From: Promethearchaeota archaeon
GTDB lineage: Archaea > Asgardarchaeota > Lokiarchaeia > Sigyniarchaeales > SOKP01
DNA length: 32,000 nt
Reading direction: 5' to 3'
NCBI GenBank assembly: GCA_030606485.1
Contig: JAUWGH010000001.1
Span: 870,001-902,000, forward strand
Shown here: positions 1-27,545 of the stretch, piece after piece
How positions within the stretch are numbered: the stretch's first letter is position 1
Layout of the letters: the number at the start of each line of letters is the position of its first letter
Notes under the pieces: model-generated
Told to the model about the DNA's origin: nothing
Database searches by the model: none
The model's input: the letters and a program-made list of their open reading frames with translations, nothing else
Made by a program: the position numbers and the translations under genes

Positions 1-1
1 A

Positions 2-1252
2 AATATAAGGAAAGACAAAATACTTAAGGATGCTTATGATTTAAGTTTTCCACGTAGGGTTGGGAGTGAAGGAAATCTCAAAGCAAGAGAACTTTTAGTT
101 TCAAAGATTACAGAACTAGAGTATAAACCACATTTTCAGAATTTTACTTATTCCTATTTATTTCGTTCATTTGTTTTTAATATCATACGAATTATATACA
201 TTTTAGGAATTATTGGGCTATTAATTTTGTATTTTCCTTTTACACAAGAAAGAATCATCTGGATTTTAATTCCCGGAACATTAATTATTGTTTTACTATT
301 AATTGAATTTTCATATTACCAAGAAATAAGTCAATTCTCTCTAATTAATTGGGAGAAATTTAAGCAAAAAAAGCTAATCAGGAATGGAAAAAATATATTT
401 ACAATTAAATCAAATGAATCTATATTAATTTTTTCTGATGAATTAAATGAATTTCAATTAAATTTTGAGAAAAAAAGCAAAAATAAACGCCATATTGTAA
501 TTCTAAGTGCTCATTATGATTCAATAAATGTCTCCTATGGACCTTTTTTAATAATATTTACATCAATTTTTAATACTATAGGCATTTTAATAATTGGATT
601 TTTTCCAATCGTACTTTTAATTCTGCAAGGAATCTGGTACTATACATTTATGATAATTTATCTTATATTCTGTTCTTTGACGATTTTATCATTATTTCTT
701 AGACTTTTTAGAAAATTACAGAATTTTTCTGATGGGGCAATAGATAACGCTAGTGGAGTCTCTACGGTTTTGGGTGTAGCTCGAGCTCTAAAAGAAATAG
801 ATTTACCAAATGTAGATATAATATTTTCCTTTTGGGACGCTGAAGAGGAAGGACTTGTAGGAAGTTTATCATTTGTAGAAAAACACCTTCAAAAATTAAT
901 TAATTTATATGGTATTGAAAAAATTCATGTAATTTCGTATGATGGGTGCGGTTCAAAAGGTCAAATCAGTTTTGGAAGATCTTTTGGCTTTCCCAGGGTA
1001 ATAAAACATGATAAGGGAATAGTCAATAAATTAAAAGCAAGTGCGGAATCATTGGAGATACCTACAAAGACATCATGGTTCTACTATCCTCCGTCGGATC
1101 ATGCTTGTTTTGGGATAAGAAATATAGACTCAGTCTGGTTTTATTCATTCGCTGCAGTATCAAATACAGTAAAAGATAAAAAGGAATTATTAATGGGACA
1201 AACTTTAGCAAACTCGGTTAAAATTTCTCTTCAATATTTATTAAATTTTTGA
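2..1252 (+). CDS. Membrane-embedded M28-family aminopeptidase-like protein, 5' partial
   Basis: The frame is open from position 2 (NIRKDKILKDAYDLSFPRRVGSEGNLKARELL...), so the true start lies upstream of the window and not at 227. Motifs are SAHYDS, GAIDNASG, DAEEEGLVGS, YDG and SDHACF. Two pairs of hydrophobic helices are present. Confidence 0.85.
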   Translation, partial: NIRKDKILKDAYDLSFPRRVGSEGNLKARELLVSKITELEYKPHFQNFTYSYLFRSFVFNIIRIIYILGIIGLLILYFPFTQERIIWILIPGTLIIVLLLIEFSYYQEISQFSLINWEKFKQKKLIRNGKNIFTIKSNESILIFSDELNEFQLNFEKKSKNKRHIVILSAHYDSINVSYGPFLIIFTSIFNTIGILIIGFFPIVLLILQGIWYYTFMIIYLIFCSLTILSLFLRLFRKLQNFSDGAIDNASGVSTVLGVARALKEIDLPNVDIIFSFWDAEEEGLVGSLSFVEKHLQKLINLYGIEKIHVISYDGCGSKGQISFGRSFGFPRVIKHDKGIVNKLKASAESLEIPTKTSWFYYPPSDHACFGIRNIDSVWFYSFAAVSNTVKDKKELLMGQTLANSVKISLQYLLNF

Positions 1253-1333
1253 ATTATTGCGAATTTCTTAAAGACTGTAAAGAAACTTGTGTAAATATTA
1301 AAAAAGAAAAGGAGAGAGTTAATTTACTTAACT

Positions 1334-2587
1334 CTATAAAATTGATCTAAACATTCTTCGGATTGAATTCTTCACAATGAGCAATTGCACGTTTCTCGTA
1401 CCTCCAATAACTTCCTCCACTTTTGAGGCATCTAATGCCTCATCTAGTAGAGTGTTATCAGTGAGAGAAATTCCGCCCATGTGATTTTGAATCTCGTAGG
1501 TAACTTCGTGAGAGAGCTTGCATCCGTAATATTTTATTTGTGATGATAAAGAAGCCATCCATTTTTCGATTTCTTTGCTCGGTTTTTCAGTAAAAAGAAT
1601 TTTATCATCATATATTGATGCAATTTGAAAAGCCATCATTGTAGCTGCTGTGACTTTAGTAAGTAAATCAGCAAGCGGAAACCCAATACCTTGATATCCA
1701 ATTATGTCTTTATTAAATTGTTTTCTCAAATTGGAATAAATAATTCCATGAATGAGTCCATTCCAGCAAATACCTATTGTGCTTCCTACAATACTTATCC
1801 TTTCGGGAATTAAACCGTCAAATAGATAATTATATCCCTTTCCATCATCTCCTAATATGTATGGATATGGAACCTTAACATCTTCAAGAATACTATGAGC
1901 TATATGCACTCTTGGAACGGCATTTATACGTAATCTTTCAGTTCTAATACCAAATTCTTTTTTAAACATTGCTTGGACCATAGTACCCCTCGGATCTTTC
2001 ATATCATATACTCCATATCCAACAAAATAGTCAGCTTTAGGACCATTCGTAGTGAAGATCTTTTCTCCGTTAAATATAACCCCATCATCAGCTTTCTCGC
2101 AAGTTGTTAGCAGATTAACTGCATCTGAACCTCTTTCTGGTTCCGTAATTAAAATACAGCCAATGCCTTTTCCTTCCATTAAATCTGTTTGAACTTTAGA
2201 AATCTCACTTGACTCGCCGTGCTGGAATGTTGGGTTCCCGCAGAGTATTCCACTAGCCAAACGTGCAAGGTCCAGCTGTGGATCACAGATGCTTAAAATT
2301 GTAGCTAATAAAACCTCATATTTCATACCATAAGGAGTAAAATCTTTATATTTATTCATTCGTTGAATATATCCATGTTCTCCAAGTTTTGGAAATAATA
2401 CATAAACATCTTTTTCTCTATCAATTGTAGGGGCTAATTCGATACAAAAATCTTCGAGTTCTTTGACAAAAGCTTGCTCTTCTTCGTTTAATAATGGAAA
2501 GATATTTTGATTTAAAATCTTATAAAAATTACCTATTTCCAGTTTTTCTAAAATTTCATCCTTGATGATTTTTTCTTGTATTTTCAT
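1334..2587 (-). CDS. Acyl-CoA dehydrogenase with an LCAD/IVD-type catalytic arrangement
   Basis: Motifs ITEPERGSDA, FNGEKIFTTNG, RKQFNKDI and IGGTRNVQ. The MCAD-position Glu is replaced by Gly, while the helix-G Glu (PERIS) is present. Confidence 0.9.
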   Translation of the reverse strand: MKIQEKIIKDEILEKLEIGNFYKILNQNIFPLLNEEEQAFVKELEDFCIELAPTIDREKDVYVLFPKLGEHGYIQRMNKYKDFTPYGMKYEVLLATILSICDPQLDLARLASGILCGNPTFQHGESSEISKVQTDLMEGKGIGCILITEPERGSDAVNLLTTCEKADDGVIFNGEKIFTTNGPKADYFVGYGVYDMKDPRGTMVQAMFKKEFGIRTERLRINAVPRVHIAHSILEDVKVPYPYILGDDGKGYNYLFDGLIPERISIVGSTIGICWNGLIHGIIYSNLRKQFNKDIIGYQGIGFPLADLLTKVTAATMMAFQIASIYDDKILFTEKPSKEIEKWMASLSSQIKYYGCKLSHEVTYEIQNHMGGISLTDNTLLDEALDASKVEEVIGGTRNVQLLIVKNSIRRMFRSIL

Positions 2588-2786
2588 ATTTAACTCAATT
2601 TAAATATTCATTTTAAAGTCTAATATCCATTAAAAACGAAACATATTTTATTAATTTATAACATTCTAATTATCAAATTTTTAAATATATTAACTAAATT
2701 CTACAATAAATAAGAAATGATTTATAACTAAGAAATAAAATTATTATTTTAATAGAATTAAAAAAAAGGAATAATTCTGAAGAAAA

Positions 2787-4382
2787 ATGTCAACCTTTAT
2801 TTTTGTATTCATCATATCCAGCGGTTTATTGACGTTTTTCTTATTATTGACGTTTTTCTATTATCAACAAATACAAAAAATGCAGATGACTGAAGAACTT
2901 GAGAAAAAAGAAAAATCTTTAGACATTATACTTGAGAAATATGCCCTTAAAGAAAAGAAAAATGTTATGTTAGAAAAATTGGCTCAAATTTCTCAAATAA
3001 TTGCTGAAACTGAAAGTGAAATTGCCGAAAAAACATCTCAAAGAACAAAACTTGCAGAAGAGTCTTTTAAGGAAAGAAGTTCTGAAGTAGAAATTATTCA
3101 ACAAGCAGATGTTAAATATCGGACATTTTCTAAAGGTTTATCATCAGCAATGCCAATTTCTGAAGAAGAAAGGCAAAGGGACTTAAAAGATTTAAAAAAT
3201 GTAATGGAAATATTGGAAAGTTTGGAAGAAACAAAATATTTAAAAGATCAAAAGACGGTTGATGTTGCAAGAGGTTTGTTTTTTGATAAGATGTCTCAAA
3301 AAATTAATTCTATAATAAATGAATTAAATTTAAGAGATCATAAAATAATACCTAACGATAGATTGATATTTCATTCCTTAAAAAGTATTCCTCAATTAAA
3401 GAATGAGGATTTTGAATCAATTTTTAATATAATGAAAGAGACTGGATTTTTTAATGATTTTATTGAAGTCAATCCAGAGTTGAGTTTAATTGTTTTTAAA
3501 AGGGAAAAACTAAGTTTTAATCAATCTGAAAAGGTTCTTCTTGCATTTGCATATGCAGAAGATTATTTAACTCCTCAAAAATTAATGGAACTTACTGAAT
3601 GGAATAACGATTTTGCTATGAAGGTGATAAATTCATTAAAAGAAAAAGAACTTCTAACAATATATGATGAAAACATCAAAATTGACGGCTTTGGAAATGT
3701 AGATGAGAGGAAAAAATGGAATGAATTCATAGAAAATCAAATTAAACAAGAAAAAGAAGATTTTGAACGAAAAAGACGCCGTCAAAAAGAGAGAGAAGAT
3801 GAATTTAAAGAAAAAATGCGTTTAAAACAACAAAAGCTAAAAAAAATTGAAGATCAGAGGTTAAAAGATATAGATGATTTAAAGATTACTATAGAAAAAC
3901 TGGAGGAAATTGCTTATTTCGATACTAAACCGTCGTCCCAAGAAATCACTAGAGAACAAATTTCGGAAAAAATACTTGAATATTATGAGCAAAATCTAAT
4001 CTTAAATGGAGGATTAATGCAATTTGCAAAAATTTATGACCATATAAAAGAAGATTATCCAAAGATAATTGTTAAAAAGATTTTAGATGTTCTCCATAAA
4101 TTCCAAGAAATGCAAATGATTAAAGATTCTTTTATGTTAGGAAGAGGAAGAATATACCTGTTTCAAGAAATGGAATTGGATGATAAAGATAAAGAGTTTT
4201 TATTATTTACAATAAATAAAAAACCCATGACAAAAGAAGAATTTTTAAAAGGACTAAAATGGGATGAGGAGAATTTATTAAAAATCATGAAAAAACTTCA
4301 GGGATATAATATTTTAAGAATTGAAAAAAACAAAATAGTAATTCCCGGAATTAAACAAACAGAAGTAATAGATGAAAAATAG
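2787..4382 (+). CDS. N-terminally membrane-anchored coiled-coil protein with two EAP30/Vps22-36 (ESCRT-II)-like winged-helix modules
   Basis: Hydrophobic aa 4-26 and coiled coils at about aa 30-155 and 305-375. Modules at about aa 163-302 and 388-522 resemble Vps22 (QISEKILE..NGGL; ELDDKDKEFL..MTKEEF..LKWDEE). Confidence 0.65.
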   Translation: MSTFIFVFIISSGLLTFFLLLTFFYYQQIQKMQMTEELEKKEKSLDIILEKYALKEKKNVMLEKLAQISQIIAETESEIAEKTSQRTKLAEESFKERSSEVEIIQQADVKYRTFSKGLSSAMPISEEERQRDLKDLKNVMEILESLEETKYLKDQKTVDVARGLFFDKMSQKINSIINELNLRDHKIIPNDRLIFHSLKSIPQLKNEDFESIFNIMKETGFFNDFIEVNPELSLIVFKREKLSFNQSEKVLLAFAYAEDYLTPQKLMELTEWNNDFAMKVINSLKEKELLTIYDENIKIDGFGNVDERKKWNEFIENQIKQEKEDFERKRRRQKEREDEFKEKMRLKQQKLKKIEDQRLKDIDDLKITIEKLEEIAYFDTKPSSQEITREQISEKILEYYEQNLILNGGLMQFAKIYDHIKEDYPKIIVKKILDVLHKFQEMQMIKDSFMLGRGRIYLFQEMELDDKDKEFLLFTINKKPMTKEEFLKGLKWDEENLLKIMKKLQGYNILRIEKNKIVIPGIKQTEVIDEK

Positions 4383-4383
4383 T

Positions 4384-4542
4384 CTAAGAGTATTTCTCTT
4401 TTATAATTTTCATAACTGTATTAATCTCTTCTAAATAAGTTTCTTTTTTCCCAAAGATATAAAATCTGACATCAGGTCCGGTTCCACTTGGTCTAAAATA
4501 TAATTTTGCTTGGTCTCTCTCTAATTCAAAGATATTAATTTT
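4384..4542 (-). pseudogene. Orphan 3'-terminal fragment (about 52 codons plus stop) of a phosphohexomutase gene
   Basis: Encodes KINIFELERDQAKLYFRPSGTGPDVRFYIFGKKETYLEEI..., homologous to the C-terminus of 6137..7870 (KIDTYRLKSEDSILYFRPSGTGPDVRFYIFGKRETHLEEI). Hand alignment gives 60/72 nt identity for 4431-4502 versus 6181-6252. Confidence 0.85.
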
Positions 4543-6292
4543 TATCAAATATATAAAATTAAAAAAAAGATCTAATCGTTTAGACAAATAGAAAAATAGG
4601 GTATCAAGAATTATTTGATTATATACCAGATAAGGATCTTTTTGTAAAATAAAATTAGTAAATTGCTTAAGACTCCTGTTAATAATATGTGTAAGAAAAT
4701 ATTTAAAATTAAAGATCAAATAAAAAGAAATCTTGAAAAAAAAAAATTTCTATTTAAATACTTTTTAAAAAAAACTATGAATTACAAAAAATTCATTTAG
4801 GAGAAATTAGAAGAAATAATTGGAAATTTTGATATGCATGAAAAAAAGATTGAGGAATTAAAAAAATACAGTGCAAATGATTTATTTGAAGATATAAGAA
4901 AAAATTTAGAAAGCATTGTTCCTTTAGATGTTTTATGGGGAGGAAAATTAACTGATACAATGTTAAGTCTATACTTAGGTCAAGTAGAAAGCCATATAAG
5001 AAGAAAAAAAAATAAGGGTAATGAAATTGTACAAGATATGTTGGGTGATTATGAATTATTCCTAAAATCTAGATTTAGTTTATGGAAGAAAGAGGCCGTT
5101 GATAAAGAATATAGGTTATTGTTACGAGATGTTAAAGATAAAATTATTAAATTTTTAGAGAAATATCGGGAGCTAAACAATTTGAAAAAGTATAAGCACG
5201 GTATAACTGTTTTTGAGCATCATCCTAATCTTAAAGTGAATTATTTTGAGCGGATAGACACGAAAGAAAAGGCTTATTGGCTCGGTTGGTTGTTTGCTGA
5301 AGGATGGTTATCAAAAATTGGTGATTCTGATTCTTTTGAATTTGGAGTTGGGTGTAATTCAGAAGACATAGAACTGTTAGAAAGGTTTACTGAGGAAATT
5401 GGTTATGATATAAGATATAGACAAGTAAAGCGATATAGAAACAAAGATGGTGAGGTAAAAGAGTTCATTATTGTTAGGTTTGATAATAAAGAATTTGCGT
5501 ATTGGCTTCAATGTCATGGATTCATTGCAGGTAAAGCGAAATCGAAAAATATAGAACTCCCTAAATTAAAATCTCGAAAACAATATTTATCTTTTGTTTT
5601 AGGGTTTTATGACGGTGATGGGATAGCAAAGACTTCTGAGATATGTTGTGGAAGTAAAAGATTTCTGGAGAAAATTAAAGATTTATTTAATATTAATTGC
5701 AAAATTACTCGGAGTATTTCTGAAGGGATAATGCCTGATGGACGTGTAATTAAAGGTACTGTAAATGGTTTATTTTTAGGTGCTGATTTATACAATGAAA
5801 TGTTGGATAACTACCAAAAAAGTTTGGAAAGAAAGAGAAATCGTCTCACAGGTATAAAACAAAGGTTAGTACAACTTAATAAGGCAAGAGAAAAGATGAG
5901 GAAATTTAAACTTACACCAGGAGAATTAGAAACTCTCTTATGGTTGAAGCCAATGACAGACATTGCCAAATCTTTAGGAGTAAGTTATGGAAGAATACAA
6001 CATTACAAGGATAGATGGGTTAATAAAGGTCTCATTAAAGCGCCGCTCCAAGGATACTGGAGGCGTAAAAAGAATCGAAGAATAAAAAAAAGAAAAGTTG
6101 AGATTGATCCTTAGAATTTTTTCTTGGATGACAGCATTATTTGTAATTATTTACAAATTCCATTACTCTTTTTATTTCTTCTAAGTGAGTTTCTCTTTTC
6201 CCAAAGATGTAAAACCTGACATCAGGACCTGTTCCCGAAGGTCTGAAATATAGAATAGAATCCTCACTTTTTAGTCGATAAGTATCAATCTT
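4543..6292. mobile_element. Putative homing element: LAGLIDADG ORF plus a replacement 3' end of the phosphomutase gene
   Basis: Inferred from the endonuclease lying between two diverged copies of the host gene 3' end. Boundaries are approximate. Confidence 0.55.
4834..6114 (+). CDS. Free-standing double-motif LAGLIDADG homing endonuclease-like protein with terminal HTH-like domains
   Basis: Motif 1 is YFERIDTKEKAYWLGWLFAEG and motif 2 is SFVLGFYDGDG. The C-terminal HTH is LTPGELETLLWLKPMTDIAKSLGVS...PLQGYW. No intein Hint motifs are visible. Confidence 0.85.
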   Translation: MHEKKIEELKKYSANDLFEDIRKNLESIVPLDVLWGGKLTDTMLSLYLGQVESHIRRKKNKGNEIVQDMLGDYELFLKSRFSLWKKEAVDKEYRLLLRDVKDKIIKFLEKYRELNNLKKYKHGITVFEHHPNLKVNYFERIDTKEKAYWLGWLFAEGWLSKIGDSDSFEFGVGCNSEDIELLERFTEEIGYDIRYRQVKRYRNKDGEVKEFIIVRFDNKEFAYWLQCHGFIAGKAKSKNIELPKLKSRKQYLSFVLGFYDGDGIAKTSEICCGSKRFLEKIKDLFNINCKITRSISEGIMPDGRVIKGTVNGLFLGADLYNEMLDNYQKSLERKRNRLTGIKQRLVQLNKAREKMRKFKLTPGELETLLWLKPMTDIAKSLGVSYGRIQHYKDRWVNKGLIKAPLQGYWRRKKNRRIKKRKVEIDP

Positions 6293-7870
6293 ATTATTAT
6301 TATCAGATAAACTTTTAATTTGATAATTTTTATTATCGATTTTTATGGATTTTCCATCATTCTTCTCAAAATTTTTCATTATATTGATTTTCTGCTCGTC
6401 AACAGCGGGAATGGTCCTATTTATTCCCTTAATTGTCCAATCTATTGCATCGGAAATTCGATATCCTCTGGCTATTAATTCACTTAAAATTATTAATGCT
6501 GGAACGGGATATTTATCTGCAATTATAGGAAAGGGCGTTTCAAAATCATACTCTTCCGTGTTATCATTTTTGGAAACTTTTAATATGTTGAATGTATGAC
6601 CCCCGCTTTCCTCCCATGCTGCAATTATTAAGTTTTCATTAGTAAGTTCTTTATTCTTAACTATTTTTCTTATACTTTCTTTGAGTGGTGTTGAATTATT
6701 AATTTTTACAAATTTATCATTATCTTCAACATATAATATTCCTGTATCAATTTTTGATTGATCTACTTCAACCCCAAATAAGAAATACAAAATAACACCT
6801 AAATGTTTATATCCTACACCTGTCAAAATATTTAGAATTGAAGTATGGTCACCCCTATAATCGCTTGGAATAGTTCTTATGTTAATTATTTTGCAAGAGA
6901 ATTCCTTTGCAAGAATATTATGCATGGCAGTGTAAAACTCGTTTGGTATATAGAGATTATATTCATTATCTTCCTTTAAAAAGAATGCAAGTCGATCTCT
7001 ATCAGCGTCTAATAATATCGCAATTTTTGAATCAACAGATTCCATCGTTTGAATTAACTTTTCTCTCCTTAATTCCTTAATTGGATTAGGTGGGTTGATT
7101 GTTTCTTCTATTAAGGTAATATCAGCTCCATATTCTTTAAAAAGATTCACAATACCCCTTGCCTTGCCTAAATATGGCCATATAACAATTTTCGCATTTT
7201 TTAATGCTTGAATTTCAATAATTTCAGAAAGTAAATCTTTAATATACTCATTATTTTTCTGTTCTGCACCAATTCTATTTTCTTTAAATTTCTTCTTAAA
7301 TTTTATTTCATTTAAGGTAAGTGCTATACTAGAAATTTGTTTCATTAAATCCCCCGAAATAGGAATTGGATATTTCATATAGACTTTAAGTCCATTCCAA
7401 TCTAATGGATTGTGCGATGCAGTAATCATTAAAGCCAGATTTATATCTTCATATAATGCAACTGATGCACTAGCATAAGGAGCAGACATTAATGAATTAC
7501 CATCACCATTTTTCTGAAAGAAAATTTCAAAACCATCATAAGCAAACATTTGAGCACAAAGTTTTACTAAATAATTACTACTCGGACGACAATCGGAAAC
7601 AATTAATATTTTCGGATTTTCTTCACTAAAATCTTCTTGATATTTGGTGCTGATCGCTTTAGCAACGCGAAGATAGAGAAATAATTTTTGATTAGTTAAA
7701 AGATATGTTCCTGAAGGTTCTATTGAATCAAAAAGTTTAATTCTTAAACCTGATGTTGGTGGAACAATAGGATCAACAATTTTTTGCTCCTCTTCATTCA
7801 AATCAGGTAATCTTATTAAATTGTAATCATCAAATTCCTCAAAATTTAATTTTTCAATTTTAAATTCCAT
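6137..7870 (-). CDS. Alpha-D-phosphohexomutase (phosphomannomutase/phosphoglucomutase family)
   Basis: Phosphoserine loop TASHNP, metal loop DADRDR, sugar loop WEESGG and phosphate loop RPSGT. Confidence 0.92.
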   Translation of the reverse strand: MEFKIEKLNFEEFDDYNLIRLPDLNEEEQKIVDPIVPPTSGLRIKLFDSIEPSGTYLLTNQKLFLYLRVAKAISTKYQEDFSEENPKILIVSDCRPSSNYLVKLCAQMFAYDGFEIFFQKNGDGNSLMSAPYASASVALYEDINLALMITASHNPLDWNGLKVYMKYPIPISGDLMKQISSIALTLNEIKFKKKFKENRIGAEQKNNEYIKDLLSEIIEIQALKNAKIVIWPYLGKARGIVNLFKEYGADITLIEETINPPNPIKELRREKLIQTMESVDSKIAILLDADRDRLAFFLKEDNEYNLYIPNEFYTAMHNILAKEFSCKIINIRTIPSDYRGDHTSILNILTGVGYKHLGVILYFLFGVEVDQSKIDTGILYVEDNDKFVKINNSTPLKESIRKIVKNKELTNENLIIAAWEESGGHTFNILKVSKNDNTEEYDFETPFPIIADKYPVPALIILSELIARGYRISDAIDWTIKGINRTIPAVDEQKINIMKNFEKNDGKSIKIDNKNYQIKSLSDNNNKIDTYRLKSEDSILYFRPSGTGPDVRFYIFGKRETHLEEIKRVMEFVNNYK

Positions 7871-7915
7871 ATTTATTACACAAACCTTTTATTAAAATAA
7901 GAAATTAGAAATTTT

Positions 7916-8800
7916 TTATTTCAGATGTTTTTTTTCTATTGTTTCGATTGCATTTCTTAAAATTTCATGAATTTTTTCCCGATAAACAAGATTTATTGCA
8001 ACCATACCATATGTTTTTATTTGCCTTTTATCAGTAGAGAGTAATTTCTCACAAAATTCAGGAGTTAATCTATTGTCTAAATCTTGCTTATTTGCTATCC
8101 CGATAATCAATTCATCTTCATAATATTTATCTAAGATTTCATGTATAATTTTTTTAGAACCATATATATTCTCATAAGTAGAATCAGTTACTAATAAAGC
8201 TATTTCTGTACCAGAAAGTAAGCTTGTCCATAAACTCTGAAAATTTTCTTGGCCCGCAAAATCCCAGAAAACAACTTCTCTTTTACCTCCAAACCCATCA
8301 TAAGTTGTAATATCAGCAGTCATTGTAGGTACGTATTCTAAATTAATATCTTTCCCACAAATTAAATGAAGAAGTGTTGTTTTTCCAACCCCTCCAAATC
8401 CAATTATTGAGACTTTTATCGCGCCAAGAACAATTTTATCAAGTTCTTCGTTAAATTCTTTAAATATTGAGCGATTACCCGCCCATTTATTATCTTTAAC
8501 AATATCTTCGAATTTTTCTAAGAATTTTTCGGCTATATTATTTAATTTATTGGTTATTTCTTTATCTTCATCTTCTTTATCTGCACAAACAACAAATATT
8601 ATGTCTTTAACAGAGATATAGAAGAATTTATTATCTCCAGTCTCAGTAGATTTTATTTCTGATTGACTAATTTCTTGCATAAAACTTGAAAATGCACTTA
8701 AAAAACCAGCCAATAGATCTTTATCAACCTCCGAAACACCGTAATTACGGAATAACAAAGATTTTCCATTATTAGTTAATATATTAACGTATTGGATCAA
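7916..8800 (-). CDS. Longin domain fused to an Arf-related small GTPase
   Basis: The N-terminal ~120 aa show a longin pattern (GKSLLFRNY..DLLAGFLSAFSSFMQEI..IIFVVCAD). GTPase motifs are G1 GFGGVGKTT, G2 YVPT, G3 WDFAGQ, LVTDST and G4 NKQD. Confidence 0.82.
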   Translation of the reverse strand: MIQYVNILTNNGKSLLFRNYGVSEVDKDLLAGFLSAFSSFMQEISQSEIKSTETGDNKFFYISVKDIIFVVCADKEDEDKEITNKLNNIAEKFLEKFEDIVKDNKWAGNRSIFKEFNEELDKIVLGAIKVSIIGFGGVGKTTLLHLICGKDINLEYVPTMTADITTYDGFGGKREVVFWDFAGQENFQSLWTSLLSGTEIALLVTDSTYENIYGSKKIIHEILDKYYEDELIIGIANKQDLDNRLTPEFCEKLLSTDKRQIKTYGMVAINLVYREKIHEILRNAIETIEKKHLK

Positions 8801-8937
8801 TTTTTTTGCAAACGAGGATTTATTTTTTCAATTATTATTATTAATATATAAGTCATAAAATAAATAATTCTTTAAATAAATTTAAATTAAATATCCATCT
8901 TCAAAGGATCATAGAGTTAAATTCATGATAAAAAATA

Positions 8938-9504
8938 ATGACTAATAATAACTCATCAGATAAAATAAACACAATTGAAGACAAAATCGGATCATTCTCG
9001 GAAATACTTCAAAACTTTGGTCTAAACCTCATACAAAATATTGGAAAAATTACTCATTCAATTCATATATTAACCGATAAAATTGATGAACTTTTTAAAA
9101 CAACTCTAGATATAAAGGGACTTATTCCACAACTGAATAAAATTATTGAAAAACAAGATATAATTGAAAGTGAAATTGATCTCCTAAAATCAGTAATCTC
9201 ACAAGGAATAATTACTCAAAAATCAACTGAAATTGAAAGAGATGAAACAACAACAATAAAATCAAATAATGCTAAGGAGATCTTTAATAATTTAAAAAAA
9301 GCACTTAGGAGCACAAAAGATTTAGAGAAAATAAAAGCTCTCTTAGATGAAACAAAAGAATCGATCTTTGAAATTACCGGAGGTCATAGAACTTTGTATG
9401 AAATATCAAAAACCATTACCGAGTTAAAAAACTTTAAAGAATTTAATGAATCTTTGGAAAAAATGCTTCTTGATAAGATTGATTTCTGGATTATAAAATT
9501 TTAA
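8938..9504 (+). CDS. Hypothetical all-helical protein (coiled coil plus C-terminal helical bundle)
   Basis: 188-aa ORF with heptad periodicity and no recognised catalytic motif. Confidence 0.6.
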   Translation: MTNNNSSDKINTIEDKIGSFSEILQNFGLNLIQNIGKITHSIHILTDKIDELFKTTLDIKGLIPQLNKIIEKQDIIESEIDLLKSVISQGIITQKSTEIERDETTTIKSNNAKEIFNNLKKALRSTKDLEKIKALLDETKESIFEITGGHRTLYEISKTITELKNFKEFNESLEKMLLDKIDFWIIKF

Positions 9505-9689
9505 AATCCCCTAATCCATTTGCATTCTTTAAAAAAAAAGGATTCTTAAAAAAAATAAATAATTTAATTTTAGAAATTTCATGGTTTTTTGGAGCTTTTT
9601 TATCTTAATTATGATTAAATATTTTAAAGTGAAATTTTTTTTTCTACTAAATAACTGGTTAAAATCTTAAAATTACAAAGTGTAAAAAA

Positions 9690-10268
9690 ATGTCAGAAGA
9701 TTCAAATAATGAAAAACTACACTTCTATAGACCAGATACGGAGTTTGTTTATAAGATAATCGTTATAGGGGATCCTGCTGTAGGAAAGACTAGCCTCTTA
9801 AACAATTTTATTAAAAAGAAATTTACAACACAATATTTACCGACCGTAGGTGTGAATATTTTAAAGTACATTCTTCAATTTGAAACAAAAGAAGGGGAGA
9901 AAACTGAAGTTAATCTAATGTTCTGGGATATCGCAGGACAGCCTCAGTTCTACATGATCCACAAACCATATTATCAAGGTGCAAACGGAATTATTCTTGT
10001 GTTTGATATTACCAGAAGTAGTACTTTCTCAAATGTTAACAATTGGTTCAATGAAGCTGTTAAATTTGGTCTTTCATCAGTACCAAGATTACTTGTTGGG
10101 AATAAGATTGATTTAAAAGATGAAAGGAAGATTATTGTTCCAATGTCAGAGCATCTTTCTAAGAAGTTAAATGCTCCATATTTCGAAACATCCGCAAAAA
10201 CAGGTGTCAATGTTCCTAATATTTTCCATAAAATTACCGAATTAATCTATTATAAGAAAAATGAATAA
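9690..10268 (+). CDS. Rab-like small GTPase without a C-terminal prenylation motif
   Basis: GDPAVGKTS, YLPTVG, WDIAGQ, YYQGA, LVFDIT, GNKID and ETSAK. The protein ends YYKKNE with no Cys. Confidence 0.92.
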   Translation: MSEDSNNEKLHFYRPDTEFVYKIIVIGDPAVGKTSLLNNFIKKKFTTQYLPTVGVNILKYILQFETKEGEKTEVNLMFWDIAGQPQFYMIHKPYYQGANGIILVFDITRSSTFSNVNNWFNEAVKFGLSSVPRLLVGNKIDLKDERKIIVPMSEHLSKKLNAPYFETSAKTGVNVPNIFHKITELIYYKKNE

Positions 10269-10351
10269 AAATCAATAGATTAAAACTCTTTTTTTCAATT
10301 TAATTTACTTGTTTTTAAGAAGGTATTATTTTTTAATTGCATAGGAAATCA

Positions 10352-10431
10352 AGGTCAAGTATAAAAATTCGAGGTCAAATGAAAAAAATTTTACGAATTT
10401 ATTTATATAGGAGTTTTAACCTCGTAAAATT
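10352..10431. promoter_or_regulatory. Candidate operator/promoter: AGGTCAA direct repeat plus a 10-bp inverted repeat around a TATA-like box
   Basis: aggtcaa at 10352 and 10372 (20-bp period). aattttacga 10387-10396 and tcgtaaaatt 10422-10431 flank tttatata. Confidence 0.3.
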
Positions 10432-10631
10432 ATAAAGGGTCTGAATTAAAAGGAGAAAAATGATTTTTGACGAATATGAATTTTAATCATATCCATATAT
10501 TACATTGTAATATATAAACTATTATTGCTATAATATTCAGATCATATTCAAGGGATTATTCAGCTGATATTGAAAAGATCTCGAGAATATAGTATTGGAT
10601 GATATAAGGATTAAAATAAATTTAAGAGGTT

Positions 10632-10931
10632 GTGTGTGAAGAAATGAGTATGTTTAGATCTTATTTGTTGAAACAAAACTTTTGGGCAAAAAAGGGAAAG
10701 GAAAGGACAGTATATATGAAACATGATATAAATATTGGTGGAATATATGCAAAAATTGAAAAAAATCGTGGCGTAACACTGTTTATTAAAGGGAAGGATT
10801 ATTTTTTTGATAATTTTGATAATTTGGACGTTTTCTTAAACCATTTAACAAACAGTTCTAATAACGATGATTTTTCGAGAGTTCTTAAGAGAAGAAATAT
10901 GCAAAAGGCTCTTAGAACTTTAGCAATTTAA
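10632..10931 (+). CDS. Small hypothetical protein (start could be the ATG at 10644 or 10650)
   Basis: 99-aa ORF with protein-like composition and an agaggt purine tract upstream. No recognised motif. Confidence 0.5.
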   Translation: MCEEMSMFRSYLLKQNFWAKKGKERTVYMKHDINIGGIYAKIEKNRGVTLFIKGKDYFFDNFDNLDVFLNHLTNSSNNDDFSRVLKRRNMQKALRTLAI

Positions 10932-11112
10932 TTAAATTAGAAATAAATTTATTTTCCTATTTTTTAACAAAAGTTAATACAAATTAAATATTCAATTGGA
11001 ATTAAATCGAATTAAATACTACATATCATCGATTTAAATACAATAGATTTTATGATTTCTTATTGAAATATATTATATTCTATGAAGTAATATCTTAGAT
11101 TAACAAAAGATT

Positions 11113-11637
11113 GTGAGGATCTTGAAAATCTCCGAAAAATTTGATGAAAAAGTAATATTAGAAAGAATAAAAATTCTTTTTAAGGAATTTGAGAAAGAGA
11201 ACATTATGATTAGCATAGCAGAATCATGTACTGGAGGGTATATTTCTCATATGATAACAAATATACCAGGAGCATCAAAAGTTTTTGAGCGTGGAGTGAT
11301 AACATATAGTAACAAATCTAAGAGTGAAATATTGGGTGTAGATCCAGAAACGATAAAGGAGTTCGGTGCTGCTAGTGATATTGTTGCAAAGCAGATGGCA
11401 GAAGGTATTCGGAGAATCTCAAATTCAAAAATAGGAATCGGGATTACGGGTATAGCGGGTCCCACCGGGGGTACGAAATTAAAACCGGTTGGCTTAGTGT
11501 ATGTTTCATATTCCTTTAAAAATCAAATAATAGTTGATAAATATCATTTTCAGACTAGCCGGATAAAATTTAAGCAAAAAGTTTTAGAAACTATTATTAA
11601 TCGACTAGAATCTATAGTTCAAGAGGAACTAAAATAA
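11113..11637 (+). CDS. pncC: CinA C-terminal domain protein / NMN deamidase (PncC)
   Basis: AESCTGG, PGASKVF, TYSNKSK, QMAEG, ITGIAGPTGG and KPVGLVY. Confidence 0.88.
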   Translation: MRILKISEKFDEKVILERIKILFKEFEKENIMISIAESCTGGYISHMITNIPGASKVFERGVITYSNKSKSEILGVDPETIKEFGAASDIVAKQMAEGIRRISNSKIGIGITGIAGPTGGTKLKPVGLVYVSYSFKNQIIVDKYHFQTSRIKFKQKVLETIINRLESIVQEELK

Positions 11638-22059: not shown

Positions 22060-22575
22060 TTATGGACCTCCCAATGTTAGTGGTATATTTTTTAATTCAA
22101 CACTAAAAAAAAGTAATCGATATGTATAATAAGCAGAAATATTAAGATCCATTGTAAATGTTGGGGGATGAAAAATATCAATATCACCTGATGGAATAGA
22201 GAAATCCTCATCGGTAGCTGTAAAATTTCCCTCAAACTCAACACCGGGTCCAATCTCTGGATAAACTTCCTCATTATACATGATAATATGAGATAACGAT
22301 ACATTATAAGTCATATTAATTGAGATTCCTATCCTTAATTCATCAAGTGGAAAATATCCTGCATTAGTTATATTGAAAGGTATTGAAAGATACATAGGTT
22401 GGTAAAAATTTAATTGTGCAGTTATAGGACCAGACGGTATTTCTATATTTTCAGAAAAATCACTAAACACGGCTACAGCAGAGAGACCACCGAATAAACC
22501 TGTAAGAGTAAGAGAAATTGTCATCACCAATAAAGTAATTCTAAAAATTATACGACATATTTTTGAAACTCCCAT
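22060..22575 (-). CDS. Signal-anchored extracellular beta-rich protein (possibly LEA-2/WHy-like)
   Basis: N-terminal TM helix, the pattern IPFNITNAGYFPL and five N-x-S/T sequons. Confidence 0.6.
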   Translation of the reverse strand: MGVSKICRIIFRITLLVMTISLTLTGLFGGLSAVAVFSDFSENIEIPSGPITAQLNFYQPMYLSIPFNITNAGYFPLDELRIGISINMTYNVSLSHIIMYNEEVYPEIGPGVEFEGNFTATDEDFSIPSGDIDIFHPPTFTMDLNISAYYTYRLLFFSVELKNIPLTLGGP

Positions 22576-22691
22576 AAGAATACCCTTTTATTAGAAAAAA
22601 TTTTGTTAGATTATAATAATTAATATCAATTTTTTTTAATAATATTATGTTATCGTTATATTTTTTATAAGAGAATATTTAATTTTAAACC

Positions 22692-23954
22692 CTAATAACC
22701 TTTAGGATAAGGATCTTCGGGAATTTCTACTATTTTGAAAGTTTTCTTGGATAACACTTTAGGAAATTGTTTTCTTATTGTGCCCCAAAAAAAGTGTTTT
22801 GCTCTTTTCTTTTTTATTTTCTCGGACATTGGCTTTTCTCCAATAGCCATTTGTAATAATTCAATAATATGATAAATTTTCATTTTTTTCTTCATATACA
22901 ACTTTTGAACTGTTGAAAGTTGGGCTAAACAACCCGCACAATAAACGCATACAGCATCTGCTTTTGTCTTCTTAAAGTCTCTAATATTTCTGAATCCTGA
23001 TTTAATTAAATTCATTGGATGATATGCACTATCAACAGAGAACCCTCCACCAATGCCACAGCATCTCATGTTTTCTCTACAAGCATCTATCTCGATAACT
23101 TTCACACCTATTGCATTTAGTATTTTTCTTGGTAAATCCATATATCCATCGCCGAACATTTTACCATAACATGATTCTTGGATTGTAACTGTCATATCTA
23201 ATTTTTCCTTGATTTGAATTTCACCACTTTCAATTCGTTCCCAAAGATATTGAATATACGATTTAATTGACTCAAATTTATAAGTTAAACCGTAATGTGG
23301 CAAAACATTCATAAAAACATTTGTTCCAGCTGTGCAAAGAACAAGTAGATTTTTTGGCTTTAAAATGTTAAACCATTTATCCAATCTTTTAGCAACTTGT
23401 TTTATTTGATCTACATAGCCAGTGCGAAATAATGTTTCACCACAACAATATTCAAGCCGACCTCTTATATCAAGATCTTTAAAGAAACTTGCTTGAGTTA
23501 ATTCAGGATATGTAATTATATTGCAACCAGGATATGTCAATGTATCCTCAACTGGGCTTAAATTTTTCCATTTCTCTAAAATTTGCTTAGCGTTTTCTGA
23601 CATATGGTCAATTACATAAGTACGGAAATTTGGATAATAGGGATAATGTGTTATATAATATTTTGCTCTTTTTTTTAGTCCATTTTTTTCATATTGTTCA
23701 TTCCACCGCTTTAAGATAAGACTTGTAGGATGTGCATCAGTAGGACAGTAAAAATTGCAAGTGAAACAACTCTGGCACTTTTTTAAAACTTGTTCGGTTT
23801 CTTCACCAGCTATTAATTTTCTCATTTCATTTTTTGATTCTTCGACCGAAAATTCCATTATTGGACAATGAATTAGACATTCACCGCATAAATCACAAAC
23901 TTCTTCGTTAAAAGGGTCAAAAAATCTATTATTTATTGGTTTGATATTAGTCAT
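22692..23954 (-). CDS. HdrD/GlpC-like Fe-S oxidoreductase (two 4Fe-4S motifs plus two CCG domains)
   Basis: CDLCGECLIHCP, CQSCFTCNFYCP, YPGC, YCCG, ESC, CCGIGGG and YCAGC. Confidence 0.88.
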   Translation of the reverse strand: MTNIKPINNRFFDPFNEEVCDLCGECLIHCPIMEFSVEESKNEMRKLIAGEETEQVLKKCQSCFTCNFYCPTDAHPTSLILKRWNEQYEKNGLKKRAKYYITHYPYYPNFRTYVIDHMSENAKQILEKWKNLSPVEDTLTYPGCNIITYPELTQASFFKDLDIRGRLEYCCGETLFRTGYVDQIKQVAKRLDKWFNILKPKNLLVLCTAGTNVFMNVLPHYGLTYKFESIKSYIQYLWERIESGEIQIKEKLDMTVTIQESCYGKMFGDGYMDLPRKILNAIGVKVIEIDACRENMRCCGIGGGFSVDSAYHPMNLIKSGFRNIRDFKKTKADAVCVYCAGCLAQLSTVQKLYMKKKMKIYHIIELLQMAIGEKPMSEKIKKKRAKHFFWGTIRKQFPKVLSKKTFKIVEIPEDPYPKGY

Positions 23955-24060
23955 ATTACTTGAGAATGATATTTTTCAAAACATCAATAGAGATAGAATT
24001 TCTAAATTATTTAAGATATATGATTTTTTTTGTATAATTTTTTATTTCCTTGTTGAAATT

Positions 24061-25422
24061 TTAACGGGTTTTCATTATTGGCATCAAAATTCGAAACATT
24101 TTTGCATATAATTTTCGAACTGCAGAAATATTAAATAAACTTCGAATCAATTTTAAGATTTTATATTTTTTTGGATGGAAGGTGCTCATATTTTTATCAT
24201 ATATTATTCGCTTTATAAAGAAATTCGATTGAAATATAGATAAAAGCAATTGATATGTAATAATGGCGATTATATCCCAAGCTCGCTTGATATGGTCATG
24301 AGGGTAATTTATTTTCTCACCCATTGCCATTCTAACTATTTCTATTATGTGATAAACATCTATTTTTTTGTTTAAAAGTTCTTTGGCAGTCCACAATAGA
24401 TATATACACCCACTACAATAAGAGATTAAGGCTTTTGCTCCCGTTTCTTCCGCTTCATTATACTTTTTTTTTGTTTCAGAGATCATATTGAATATTAATG
24501 AAATATTATCCACCCAAGAAGCTCCTGCTCCAAATCCACAACATAATGAATTTTTTTTATTATGTTTCATTTCTAGAATTTTACAGCCGCATTTTTTAAG
24601 AATATCTCTTGGTTTTTCCCAATATACACCATTTAAAGGTTTAGAATAGCAATTGTCATGAATAGTGACTTTAAGATTTAATGGCTTAGGTAATTTTATG
24701 TCACCTGCATCAATCTTTTCTATAAGCCAATCATGAAAATTTATAAATTCTTGATCATGAGTTACTCTCATTTCTTTGGGATGCACTTCTTTAAAAATAT
24801 ATTGGACGGCATCTAAAATTGGAACGATAGTATTAGCTCCCCAATTATCAAAGTCTCTTTTTGTTCTTTCAGCAATCTTTTGAACGACATCCAGATATCC
24901 TCCTTGATAAAGATAAGCCCCTCCCTCCCATTGATCAATTCTATCTATAGGCTTAAAATAATTTAATAACTTACTTCCTCCAATTATAAATGGAAATAAA
25001 TGAGTATAATTTCCGATTAATAAAACCTTATCAGATGGTTTAGGAATATAATTCATCCATTCATCAATCCATCGTTTTTCTTTATTAGATAGGAAAATAT
25101 TTAGGAGTTGCCAAATGTTATGTTGCTCAGTAGGACAGACAAAACGATAGAGAGGAGGTACACCTCTCTCTTTGTATAAATCATTCCATCTTTCAAGGAT
25201 TAATTGATATGGATTTGCTTGTTGAGGACAATATAAATTACATGATAAACACGTAGTGCAAGTAGTAAGAACATATTTAGATTCCTTTCCCTCGATAAGA
25301 TTTTTCATTTCTAATTTTGCTTCTTCGATAGGCAGTTGTAAAACAGGACAGAGATGAAAACATAACCCACATAGATCACATTTATCCACTTTAAATCCGG
25401 AAACCCTTTTTTCTTTAATCAT
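24061..25422 (-). CDS. HdrD/GlpC-like Fe-S oxidoreductase paralogue with a degenerate first CCG domain
   Basis: CDLCGLCFHLCP, CTTCLSCNLYCP, HDNC, CCGFG and YCSGC. The first CCG domain reads QWEGG. Confidence 0.85.
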   Translation of the reverse strand: MIKEKRVSGFKVDKCDLCGLCFHLCPVLQLPIEEAKLEMKNLIEGKESKYVLTTCTTCLSCNLYCPQQANPYQLILERWNDLYKERGVPPLYRFVCPTEQHNIWQLLNIFLSNKEKRWIDEWMNYIPKPSDKVLLIGNYTHLFPFIIGGSKLLNYFKPIDRIDQWEGGAYLYQGGYLDVVQKIAERTKRDFDNWGANTIVPILDAVQYIFKEVHPKEMRVTHDQEFINFHDWLIEKIDAGDIKLPKPLNLKVTIHDNCYSKPLNGVYWEKPRDILKKCGCKILEMKHNKKNSLCCGFGAGASWVDNISLIFNMISETKKKYNEAEETGAKALISYCSGCIYLLWTAKELLNKKIDVYHIIEIVRMAMGEKINYPHDHIKRAWDIIAIITYQLLLSIFQSNFFIKRIIYDKNMSTFHPKKYKILKLIRSLFNISAVRKLYAKMFRILMPIMKTR

Positions 25423-25631
25423 TTTATCAATTATCTCAAATTATTGATATTTTTTAATTGATATTTATTAGTGAGTATTTTAATAAAATAGATTTCTCTT
25501 TCATTTAAATTGTATAAATAAAGTAATAATTTTTGATTGCTTTTTTTATTCAAATTACGAGAATTCTATGCATAAAAGTTTATATATTTCGAGAATAGAT
25601 TTTTAATAAATAACCATTAAAGGAGAATTTT

Positions 25632-27197
25632 ATGGAAAAATCTAAAAATGAATTAGAACCTTCACCAGAATTTCATATATCAAAAGAGAAAGTTATGGCG
25701 AACATAATAAAATTAATTCCTGAAATGAGAAAAGTCCGAAGAAAAGCTGAAAAGCTCTTATTAGAGATTCAAGAGCCAAAATTAAAAGTTCAAGCACCGA
25801 CTTCTGAAATTATTCAAAATGACTTGAAGAAAATATGTAGTGTTCCACATAGAAGAATAGGAACAAAAGAAGCACATGAGATTGAAAATTTTTTAGAAAG
25901 TAAATTTATTGAATTAGGGGTTGAAAATGTTAAGAAGGAACCGGTAAATATGATAAACTGGGTTGCTAAAAATTGGAAATTAAGTATTCTAAATAAAAAT
26001 GGAACTATTGAAATTCCTTGCTTTTATGTGCTGAATACCGAATTTACTGATAAAGACGGATTAACCGCTCCTATAGTTTATTTAAGAACGGGAAGAGATA
26101 AAGATTTTAAAAGGGTTGATGTTAAAGATAAAATTGTAGTTGCAGATATTAAATTTCCAACACTTCCTATTGGGAAAATAGTAAGTCTAGCTAAACCATA
26201 TTATGTTGCTGATCCTACTAATTCAATCGATGAAAATACGAAAATGATATTAACCTTTGCTTTATTGAATTTCCCACCACAAGCACTTGGGGGAAAACCA
26301 AGGGAAGATTCTGTTTATTGGCGTGCAGTAAGAAGAGGAGCATTAGGGTTAATCCTTATTTTGAGAGATTATCCATCAAATGTTAATAGTCATTGGGGTC
26401 CATATGATGGTTCTATGAAACCCGTTCCTGCTTTATATGTAGGAAAATATGATGGAATGAAAGTTAGGGAATTAGCCAAATTAAATAATTCTCAAGCTAC
26501 AATAATTCTTGAGGGGCGTAAGGAACCAAGCATAGCACATAACATTTGGGGTATATTACCTGGTCTATCTGATGAGATGATAATGGTATCTAGCCATCAT
26601 GATTCTGCATTTAAGGGTGCTTCTGAAGATGGAACTGGAGTTGCAATGGTTTTAGCTCAATTGAGAGCATGGTCCAAAATCCCGAAAAATGAAAGACCTC
26701 GCTCAATATTATTCATATTAACAACAGGTCATCTGTATGGAGGAATAGGAGCGGAATCATTTGCAAGAAAATATAAAGATGACCTTTTAAAGAATGTATT
26801 AGTAGATGTGAACTTAGAACATATGTGTGCAAAAGATGTTGATGAAGATCCTCAAACCCATAATTTTAAATTTACAAATGAACTTGCATTTGGGGCAGTA
26901 TTTCTATCTCAAAGAGTACAATTAGTAGCTCATACAATTAAAGCATTTAAAGAACATAAAATAGAGCGAATGATGTTAATCCCAGACAATTTTTTTGCAA
27001 CACCTCCTATTGGTGAAGCAGGTCATTTTACATCTCATAGTGATTTAAAAATAATTCATTGGATAAGGTCCCCCTATTACTTACTAACTGCAGAAGATAC
27101 ATTGGATAAAATTGATATGAATAAATTGAGTTCTACTGCTCAATGTGTCTCAGATTTAATTAATTCTCTAATGATTTTATCAAAGGAACGGTTTTAA
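25632..27197 (+). CDS. PA-domain M28-family peptidase-like protein with non-canonical metal ligands
   Basis: HRRIGT, a PA insert (DVKDKIVV..AVRRGALGLI), SSHHDS, GASEDGTG, TGH, NLEH and DTLDKI. An aaggag SD precedes the ATG. Confidence 0.8.
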   Translation: MEKSKNELEPSPEFHISKEKVMANIIKLIPEMRKVRRKAEKLLLEIQEPKLKVQAPTSEIIQNDLKKICSVPHRRIGTKEAHEIENFLESKFIELGVENVKKEPVNMINWVAKNWKLSILNKNGTIEIPCFYVLNTEFTDKDGLTAPIVYLRTGRDKDFKRVDVKDKIVVADIKFPTLPIGKIVSLAKPYYVADPTNSIDENTKMILTFALLNFPPQALGGKPREDSVYWRAVRRGALGLILILRDYPSNVNSHWGPYDGSMKPVPALYVGKYDGMKVRELAKLNNSQATIILEGRKEPSIAHNIWGILPGLSDEMIMVSSHHDSAFKGASEDGTGVAMVLAQLRAWSKIPKNERPRSILFILTTGHLYGGIGAESFARKYKDDLLKNVLVDVNLEHMCAKDVDEDPQTHNFKFTNELAFGAVFLSQRVQLVAHTIKAFKEHKIERMMLIPDNFFATPPIGEAGHFTSHSDLKIIHWIRSPYYLLTAEDTLDKIDMNKLSSTAQCVSDLINSLMILSKERF

Positions 27198-27545
27198 TTT
27201 TATTTTTATTTTTTCAATCTTTTGAATTACGTGTGCGACGAGAAATCATTAATTTCCTACAATTTATAGATTTAAATTATCTTTTTTTAGCGAGGTTTTA
27301 GATTTACCATATAAAGATCTTTTTTCAAGAGCAAAACATTAATGGTGACAATATCTTGAAAGGCAAATTGAAAATAATCTAAACAAATTTAGAGGCAACA
27401 ATTAATAAATTGAATTGTTATTATTTTAAAAAAGATTTTAATAAATTTATTTACTATTTTAAAAAAGGGTCTTAGAAATATTTTAAAAATCTAAACTAAT
27501 TCTTATAAAAAGATTTAAATAAAAAAAGTAGGATTTTGAGAAAAT

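Follow-up and report, generated by a model that had tools for sequence, protein, structure and literature searches.

A free-standing LAGLIDADG endonuclease gene and an imported phosphomutase gene end form a probable homing element in an Asgard archaeal chromosome

Background

Archaeal homing endonucleases have been described inside rRNA introns and inteins. The locus analysed here raises the question of whether such an enzyme can also be mobile in an archaeal chromosome with neither of these splicing elements around it. In a stretch of 32,000 nucleotides (the window; positions 870,001 to 902,000 of contig JAUWGH010000001.1, GenBank assembly GCA_030606485.1) from a Promethearchaeota archaeon of the Lokiarchaeia, a minus-strand phosphomutase gene is followed by a convergent open reading frame (ORF) for a LAGLIDADG endonuclease and then by a second, headless copy of the mutase 3' end, hereafter called the orphan. 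An earlier note, made from the letters of this DNA alone, had read the arrangement as homing by 3'-end replacement. We compared the locus with related genomes and metagenome contigs, and propose that it is probably a homing-endonuclease element whose mobility depends on replacement of the 3' portion of its cellular host gene, without an intron or intein. In what follows G000 is the genome of the window (3.75 Mb), G001, G002 and G003 are genomes of the same genus, and L numbers denote loci or contigs that were compared.

Results

The two gene ends and the empty allele

Both genes were found where the earlier note had placed them: the intact phosphomutase gene (577 aa, PGM_PMM_I and II domains in Pfam) ends at 6137, and the convergent LAGLIDADG ORF adjoins it with 22 nt between the two stops (coordinates in Table 1). 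The headless copy of the last ~52 mutase codons is likewise present; it matches mutase residues 527-573 (30/47 identity, E = 4e-19) and is the sole other mutase match in the 3.75 Mb searched. A gap of 1 nt separates its stop (4384-4386) from that of the neighbouring gene (4382), again as first noted. Orphan and active end encode the same 19-residue core, LYFRPSGTGPDVRFYIFGK, in which the nucleotide sequences differ at 10/57 positions, all synonymous and including a Ser codon that is TCG in one copy and AGT in the other. The shared core and its synonymous differences therefore stood as described, and recounting corrected the nucleotide identity over the 72-nt core from 60/72 to 59/72. Use of the AGT/TCG serine as a lineage marker was dropped, as both codon classes are found across genera.

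When the orphan was used as query of a protein collection, it retrieved P0002, a full-length mutase of 579 aa whose C-terminus is 96% identical to it. The metagenome contig that encodes P0002 (L128) is syntenic with the window (longin-GTPase, mutase, 531-aa neighbour, acyl-CoA dehydrogenase), and its mutase gene runs into the orphan-type end, with its stop 1 nt from that of the neighbour. L128 is thus the empty allele that the earlier note had anticipated, a full mutase gene running into the 4384-type end beside the neighbour gene. At the nucleotide level the near-identity of the orphan to L128 begins at 4543, runs past the stop and continues inside the neighbour gene; upstream of 4543 the match ends abruptly. 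G000 and L128 are 0-4% divergent across the GTPase gene, the 5' body of the mutase gene (1-4%) and the neighbour gene, and about 30% divergent from 6137 to about 6645. The sharp breakpoint against L128 at about 6645 is common to G000, G002, L069, G001 and G003.

The two parts of the G000 mutase have different relatives. Its first 408 residues are 97% identical to L128, 70-76% to congeners and 54-61% to proteins of other genera, and its last 169 residues are 63%, 59-64% and 70-72% identical to the same three sets. For the L128 mutase the corresponding values are 69-76% (congeners) and 53-60% (other genera) in the 5' half, and 70-74% and 57-62% in the 3' half, i.e., the pattern of L128 is concordant in both halves and that of G000 is reversed between them. 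A tree of the 3' half places L128 with the congeners (support 100/99), and for this half an approximately unbiased (AU) test rejects a topology in which L128 and the G000-type ends form a clade (p = 0.0005). With the 5' half, L128 falls inside the G000 cluster, and here the AU test rejects the grouping obtained from the 3' half (p = 0.029). Because the identities are reversed between the halves, and because the trees, the AU tests and the match to L128 agree, these sequence comparisons identify the active 3' tract as an import and the orphan as the native gene end, as the earlier note had expected of separate trees for body and ends.

The import (169 codons) is three times the length of the duplicated part, and native codons about 409-527 are gone from the occupied alleles. 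The replaced part had first been put at ~52 codons; by the breakpoint against L128, the tract in the active gene really measures about 169 codons or 509 nt. The unit of the element is therefore window 4544-6645, i.e., a foreign functional mutase end, a convergent LAGLIDADG gene and a 290-nt spacer. This spacer is kept in G002 and L069 and has no Rfam family match; the endonuclease is the only gene between the two gene-end copies, where no integrase was found. A promoter and terminator scan, of a kind ill-suited to archaea, gave fewer matches than shuffled sequence.

The endonuclease

Alone, the window endonuclease scores 17 bits against the Pfam LAGLIDADG model, below the cutoff of 22.5. Members of its family match PF14528 in 11/11 cases tested (best 1.9e-7), and the family profile finds I-Tsp061I (2dch) in the PDB at 6e-5, and also I-DmoI/I-CreI. 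In an alignment with ten relatives, two motifs, WLGWLFAEG (E156) and LGFYDGDG (D262), stand out, and both acidic residues are invariant. The AlphaFold model (pLDDT 80) contains an alpha-beta-beta-alpha-beta-beta-alpha fold repeated twice, and its top Foldseek matches in the PDB, all LAGLIDADG proteins at probability 1.00, are bI3 maturase, I-AniI, I-SceI, I-Tsp061I and I-DmoI. Profiles, alignment and predicted structure together confirm the assignment of the ORF as a putative double-motif LAGLIDADG homing endonuclease. The gene is single-copy in G000, and the G000 and G002 proteins are full-length and keep all 38 family-invariant residues (alignment A2).

No Hint domain was found in the endonuclease by Pfam, and no Rfam match across 4000-7000. 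Because the region has no RNA family match and the ORF lies opposite to the mutase strand, the endonuclease is neither intron-borne nor an intein. Some homologues form the C-terminal end of longer ORFs of 574 to >900 aa, for example L046 1339-4047 (-) and L043 1468-3192 (-). An intein reading of such ORFs (574-902 aa) was considered and no claim is made of it, since Pfam finds only LAGLIDADG and no Hint domain in the two that were tested.

Occupied, decayed and endonuclease-less alleles

Among 60 relatives, the three-part arrangement is found in G002 only, with an endonuclease 99% identical to that of G000. A third copy, 97% identical, lies on a GenBank metagenome contig (L069), which was the one close copy in an endonuclease-based metagenome scan, all other matches having <=49% identity. 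In L069 the codon of G157, inside motif 1, has become a stop, the invariant residues Y148 and G233 are changed, and the orphan has decayed through a 43-nt deletion. This endonuclease copy is, to judge by its lesions, dead.

In G001 and G003 the mutase stop directly abuts the neighbour gene with no endonuclease between, and these alleles had been taken for naive empty sites, with the 5' part of the orphan as foreign. That reading was rejected, since L128 showed the whole orphan to be native and both genomes retain the imported tract. The tract is found without an endonuclease in G001, G003 and P0012, and the tails of these alleles turn orphan-type after EEI (G003) or after VMEFV (G001, P0012). 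Most simply, the two gene-end copies recombined and the endonuclease was lost; alternatively, these alleles may be precursors. As the tracts of G001/G003 and G000 differ at 20-30% of codons, mostly synonymously, the group must have had the import for a long time, with purifying selection acting on it. It is the endonuclease-bearing version of the tract that has spread recently.

Spread and natural populations

Positions 5632-6700 are identical in G000 and G002, and their endonuclease genes (1281 nt) show 7 differences (0.5%), with flanks that are 5-9% divergent. Their low-divergence tract extends from about 3400 to about 6800 and so reaches into the neighbour gene, which is suggestive of an element younger than its flanks that carried co-converted flanking DNA with it. 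The element is missing from L128, to which G000 is closest in both flanks (0-4%). The site is therefore polymorphic for presence and absence, L128 being empty and G000, G002 and L069 occupied.

The stretch is present in 20 public sequencing runs from 8 studies, covering cold-seep, marine and subsurface sediments; no RNA run is among the 20. Both forms occur together in run X7, where a contig that joins 4401 to 6153 without the endonuclease (depth 56) accompanies an endonuclease-bearing contig (depth 44). Run X14 contributes an independent Logan contig of 10.6 kb that covers the whole stretch; contigs of run X1, whose cover was patchy, were left out. With the same arrangement in G002, in L069 and on this contig, the locus is not an assembly chimera, an outcome that the earlier note had named as refuting its reading.

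Across window positions 1-11600, divergence from G001 and G002 alternates between about 0.5% and about 15-30% in blocks of a few hundred bases (for G000-G001, 1/200 differences at 800-1000 and 59/200 at 1200-1400). Such a mosaic suggests that homologous recombination between these Asgard lineages is very frequent.

Recurrence at other host genes

Homologues of the endonuclease are found in 78/134 genomes of the family, often in several copies. Of the 57 homologue loci with usable flanks, 15 are bracketed by the end of a full-length gene and, on the opposite side, a headless copy of that end. By Pfam, five host genes account for 14 of these loci: an AMP-binding gene resembling acetoacetyl-CoA synthetase at four, the phosphomutase and a UBC-RWD protein with a zinc finger at its C-terminus at three each, and an SNF2 helicase and a radical SAM gene at two each; the host of the remaining locus is unassigned. 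The endonuclease is convergent with most hosts and co-directional at SNF2. The family is thus tied to gene-end duplications at four host genes beyond the mutase, which speaks against random loci, an outcome that the earlier note had named as fatal to its reading.

At the synthetase-like gene the native origin of orphans and the import of active ends are proven a second time, because the G003 orphan equals the G000 active end plus downstream DNA bar one base, and the G003 active end differs. At the SNF2 loci L039 and L044 the orphan starts right at helicase motif VI (RAYRIGQ). The repeated UBC-RWD host, seen on metagenome contigs L088, L090 and L098, is a protein of roughly 590 aa with UBC (E2-like) and RWD domains and a zinc-finger tail, and a second copy of roughly its last 25 codons lies past the endonuclease gene.

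A mock-site control for flank duplications matched at 7/61 sites, two of which are the mutase element itself and the others long tandem paralogues rather than short headless ends; the apparent enrichment of flank duplications at endonuclease loci is real in kind. Tandem paralogous genes also occupy window positions of about 22500-29500, where flank matches pair 22500 with 25200 and 27000 with 29700, and the segment 27507-29437 has a second match in G002.

Table 1. Positions of the features at the phosphomutase locus and at the synthetase loci
Sequence	Positions	Strand	Feature	Basis or remark
Window	2787..4382	+	Neighbouring 531-aa gene, right-hand homology flank	Order and 1-nt stop-to-stop spacing same in L128
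Window	4384..4543	-	Orphan: displaced native last 52 codons and stop of phosphomutase	96% identity to P0002 (L128) C-terminus
Window	4544..4833	.	Element-internal spacer upstream of endonuclease start, no mutase homology	L128 homology stops at 4543
Window	4834..6114	+	Putative free-standing double-motif LAGLIDADG homing endonuclease gene, 426 aa, N-terminal helical region, C-terminal HTH-like tail	Profile, alignment, model
Window	6115..6136	.	Spacer, 22 nt, between convergent stops of endonuclease and mutase genes	Read from sequence
Window	6137..6645	-	Imported phosphomutase 3' tract, about 169 codons and stop, predicted expressed gene end, contains RPSGT loop	Breakpoint vs L128, identities, 3' tree, AU test
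Window	6646..7870	-	Native phosphomutase 5' body, residues 1 to about 408	97% protein identity to L128, 70-76% to congeners
L124 (G000:C8:197500-206500)	6044-7864	-	Synthetase gene	Orphan ends set apart by toxin-antitoxin cassettes, no endonuclease
L124	5266-6013		AbrB/MazE-like + PIN (VapBC-like) toxin-antitoxin pair	Follows synthetase gene
L124	5023-5178		Decayed orphan of synthetase 3' end	After first toxin-antitoxin pair
L124	1954-2079		Second synthetase orphan	Beside second pair
L124	1240-1907		Second VapB/PIN pair	About 3 kb further, past further genes
L125 (G000:C5)	2801-3031		Synthetase fragment on another contig	77 residues, 68% identity
L126 (G002:C80)	2276-2419		Synthetase orphan	About 2.1 kb behind gene
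L127 (G001:C46)	4372-4464		Synthetase orphan	Only about 95 nt behind intact gene

Discussion

Proposed mechanism and its rivals

Starting from the documented architecture, empty allele, foreign active end, recent spread and decay, we propose the following cycle. The endonuclease would cut a native-type allele such as that of L128, within native codons about 409-527 or at the right edge, and the break would be repaired from an occupied chromosome. On the left side, the near-identical 5' body is the sole place where repair could begin, and the entire diverged 3' tract would therefore be copied in; on the right side the broken end would pair with the donor's orphan and neighbour gene. The outcome would be a chimeric, intact mutase gene without the native site, and the old gene end would be stranded as a non-coding orphan. 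Later the element may decay, or it may be lost by recombination between the gene-end copies, leaving endonuclease-free alleles with the import. The RPSGT loop, which the earlier note had pointed out in the shared core, need not be the target. The core of that note, homing by 3'-end replacement, is supported by the empty allele, the foreign end and the recurrence at other hosts, and is amended in the length of the tract and in the status of G001 and G003.

Several points weigh against this proposal. Cleavage, target position and repair route are what we infer from the alleles. A close donor of the imported tract was not found by a region-restricted search, in which matches outside the cluster reached 71-73% at best, and 42/57 homologue loci have no detectable flank duplication. 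Low-divergence stretches occur elsewhere in the same 11 kb and, because these genomes are general recombination mosaics, the drop in divergence at the element cannot, taken alone, prove homing. Substitutions among the three endonuclease copies are mostly non-synonymous (4 vs 2 and 14 vs 3), hence over so short a range no purifying selection on the endonuclease can be seen, and the copy in G000 may have lost its activity already. Finally, at the synthetase gene of G000 the orphan ends are set apart by toxin-antitoxin cassettes, with no endonuclease (Table 1).

The last point bears on the rival that survives best, namely that the endonuclease merely travels as a passenger. In these archaea one-sided homologous recombination (homology-facilitated illegitimate recombination) would generally replace gene ends and strand orphans, and any cargo could ride behind the foreign end. 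The G000 synthetase gene, with two toxin-antitoxin pairs and two orphans but no endonuclease, fits this view, and the synthetase loci of G001 and G002 have orphans too. Either endonucleases were replaced at this locus or other cargo uses the same route; the stacked, endonuclease-free orphans therefore keep alive the rival in which one-sided recombination is primary and the endonuclease a frequent passenger. However, a single endonuclease family recurs in this arrangement across many genomes, with five different genes as hosts, the near-identical element between flanks that are 5-9% divergent fits driven spread, and the toxin-antitoxin loci could be former endonuclease sites. A quick self-comparison for cargo blocks between duplicated gene termini elsewhere in G000 gave only weak matches (19 aa at 42% identity, offset 1463). 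We therefore consider the passenger explanation unlikely.

More improbable still is that the locus is a fossil, i.e., an old vertical insertion with a non-working endonuclease in G000, in which presence and absence reflect loss only. The mostly non-synonymous substitutions, the dead L069 copy and the 20-30% of codons at which the imported tracts of G001/G003 and G000 differ, which make the tract old, would agree with it. Yet the G000 and G002 copies are full-length with all 38 family-invariant residues kept, they are 0.5% apart between flanks that are 5-9% apart, L128 lacks the element although it is closest to G000 in both flanks (0-4%), and occupied and endonuclease-less forms live together in one sample. 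That two strains were joined in assembly (several strains co-occur where this metagenome-derived genome comes from), or that the locus is an integrase-type island with the gene end as attachment site, is hardly credible, given the same order in four independent assemblies with one 10.6-kb contig across the whole stretch, gene-end copies that differ mainly at synonymous sites and so are not identical attachment-site repeats, and an endonuclease gene with no integrase beside it between them.

Significance

If homing by 3'-part replacement is the right reading, it is a third route for homing endonucleases in an archaeal chromosome, in which no splicing element is involved and an imported replacement end keeps the host gene alive. 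Each event would create a hybrid enzyme, here a mutase whose last 169 residues, the RPSGT loop included, were swapped for a 63%-identical segment, which provides a concrete mechanism for moving gene segments between genera. It would also explain orphan gene fragments that annotation would label as pseudogenes or small ORFs. Public sediment metagenomes hold all stages, i.e., the naive allele, intact and dead elements, and endonuclease-less alleles with the import, and the system is thus usable for studying cycles of endonuclease invasion and loss in uncultured Asgard populations. The family is in addition a set of new LAGLIDADG enzymes whose targets are guessable from empty alleles. A wider generalization, to which we give about an even chance, is that a free-standing LAGLIDADG family in Lokiarchaeia-type Asgard archaea spreads by replacing 3' parts of ordinary genes, including the eukaryote-like UBC-RWD and SNF2 genes, each invasion importing a segment from another genus and leaving an orphan, and that toxin-antitoxin cassettes may use or inherit the sites.

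Comparison with known systems

The design has until now been described mainly in fungal mitochondria. A literature search that included papers on Asgard mobile elements found no description of end-replacing homing in archaeal (or bacterial) chromosomal protein genes. Mobile ORFs that carry a foreign gene C-terminus are known from atp6 of Allomyces macrogynus, from atp6, atp9, cox2 and nad3 of Glomus sp., and from Rhizopus atp9 and Mortierella cox2 (PMC3630166); mobile ORF elements of fungal mitochondria are also treated in PMC6279837. Like these, the archaeal locus has a gene core, an inserted foreign C-terminus, an endonuclease ORF (in fungi mostly LAGLIDADG) and a remnant of the native C-terminus; the remnant matches close relatives, the inserted end is diverged mostly at synonymous sites, and a hybrid gene results without intron or intein. 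The differences are that the element lies in an archaeal chromosome and not in an organelle, that the import is long (169 codons), that a single endonuclease family has at least five unrelated cellular genes as hosts, and that the Asgard protein has extra N-terminal helical and C-terminal HTH-like regions. The fungal ORF is often in phase with its host gene, and in several cases the endonuclease is in phase or co-transcribed with it, whereas here it is a separate gene, never fused in frame, on the opposite strand, convergent and across a 22-nt gap.

Intronless homing by free-standing endonucleases, namely the Seg proteins and MobE, is known from T4-like phages (PMC2790892, PMC2988022). There too a free-standing endonuclease gene lies beside its target gene, and spread by break repair, co-conversion of the flanks and protection of the donor by a site difference would be shared features if our reading of the archaeal alleles holds. 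Unlike the LAGLIDADG enzyme described here, the phage enzymes are GIY-YIG or HNH proteins, and their genes sit intergenically with no duplicated, stranded gene end. With the LAGLIDADG enzymes of archaeal rRNA introns and inteins (I-DmoI, I-Tsp061I, PI-PfuI) the Asgard protein shares its predicted fold and two-motif monomeric form, I-Tsp061I being the best profile match. It differs from them in its setting, which has no intron RNA and no intein, and in which the host gene is kept by replacement of its end and not by splicing.

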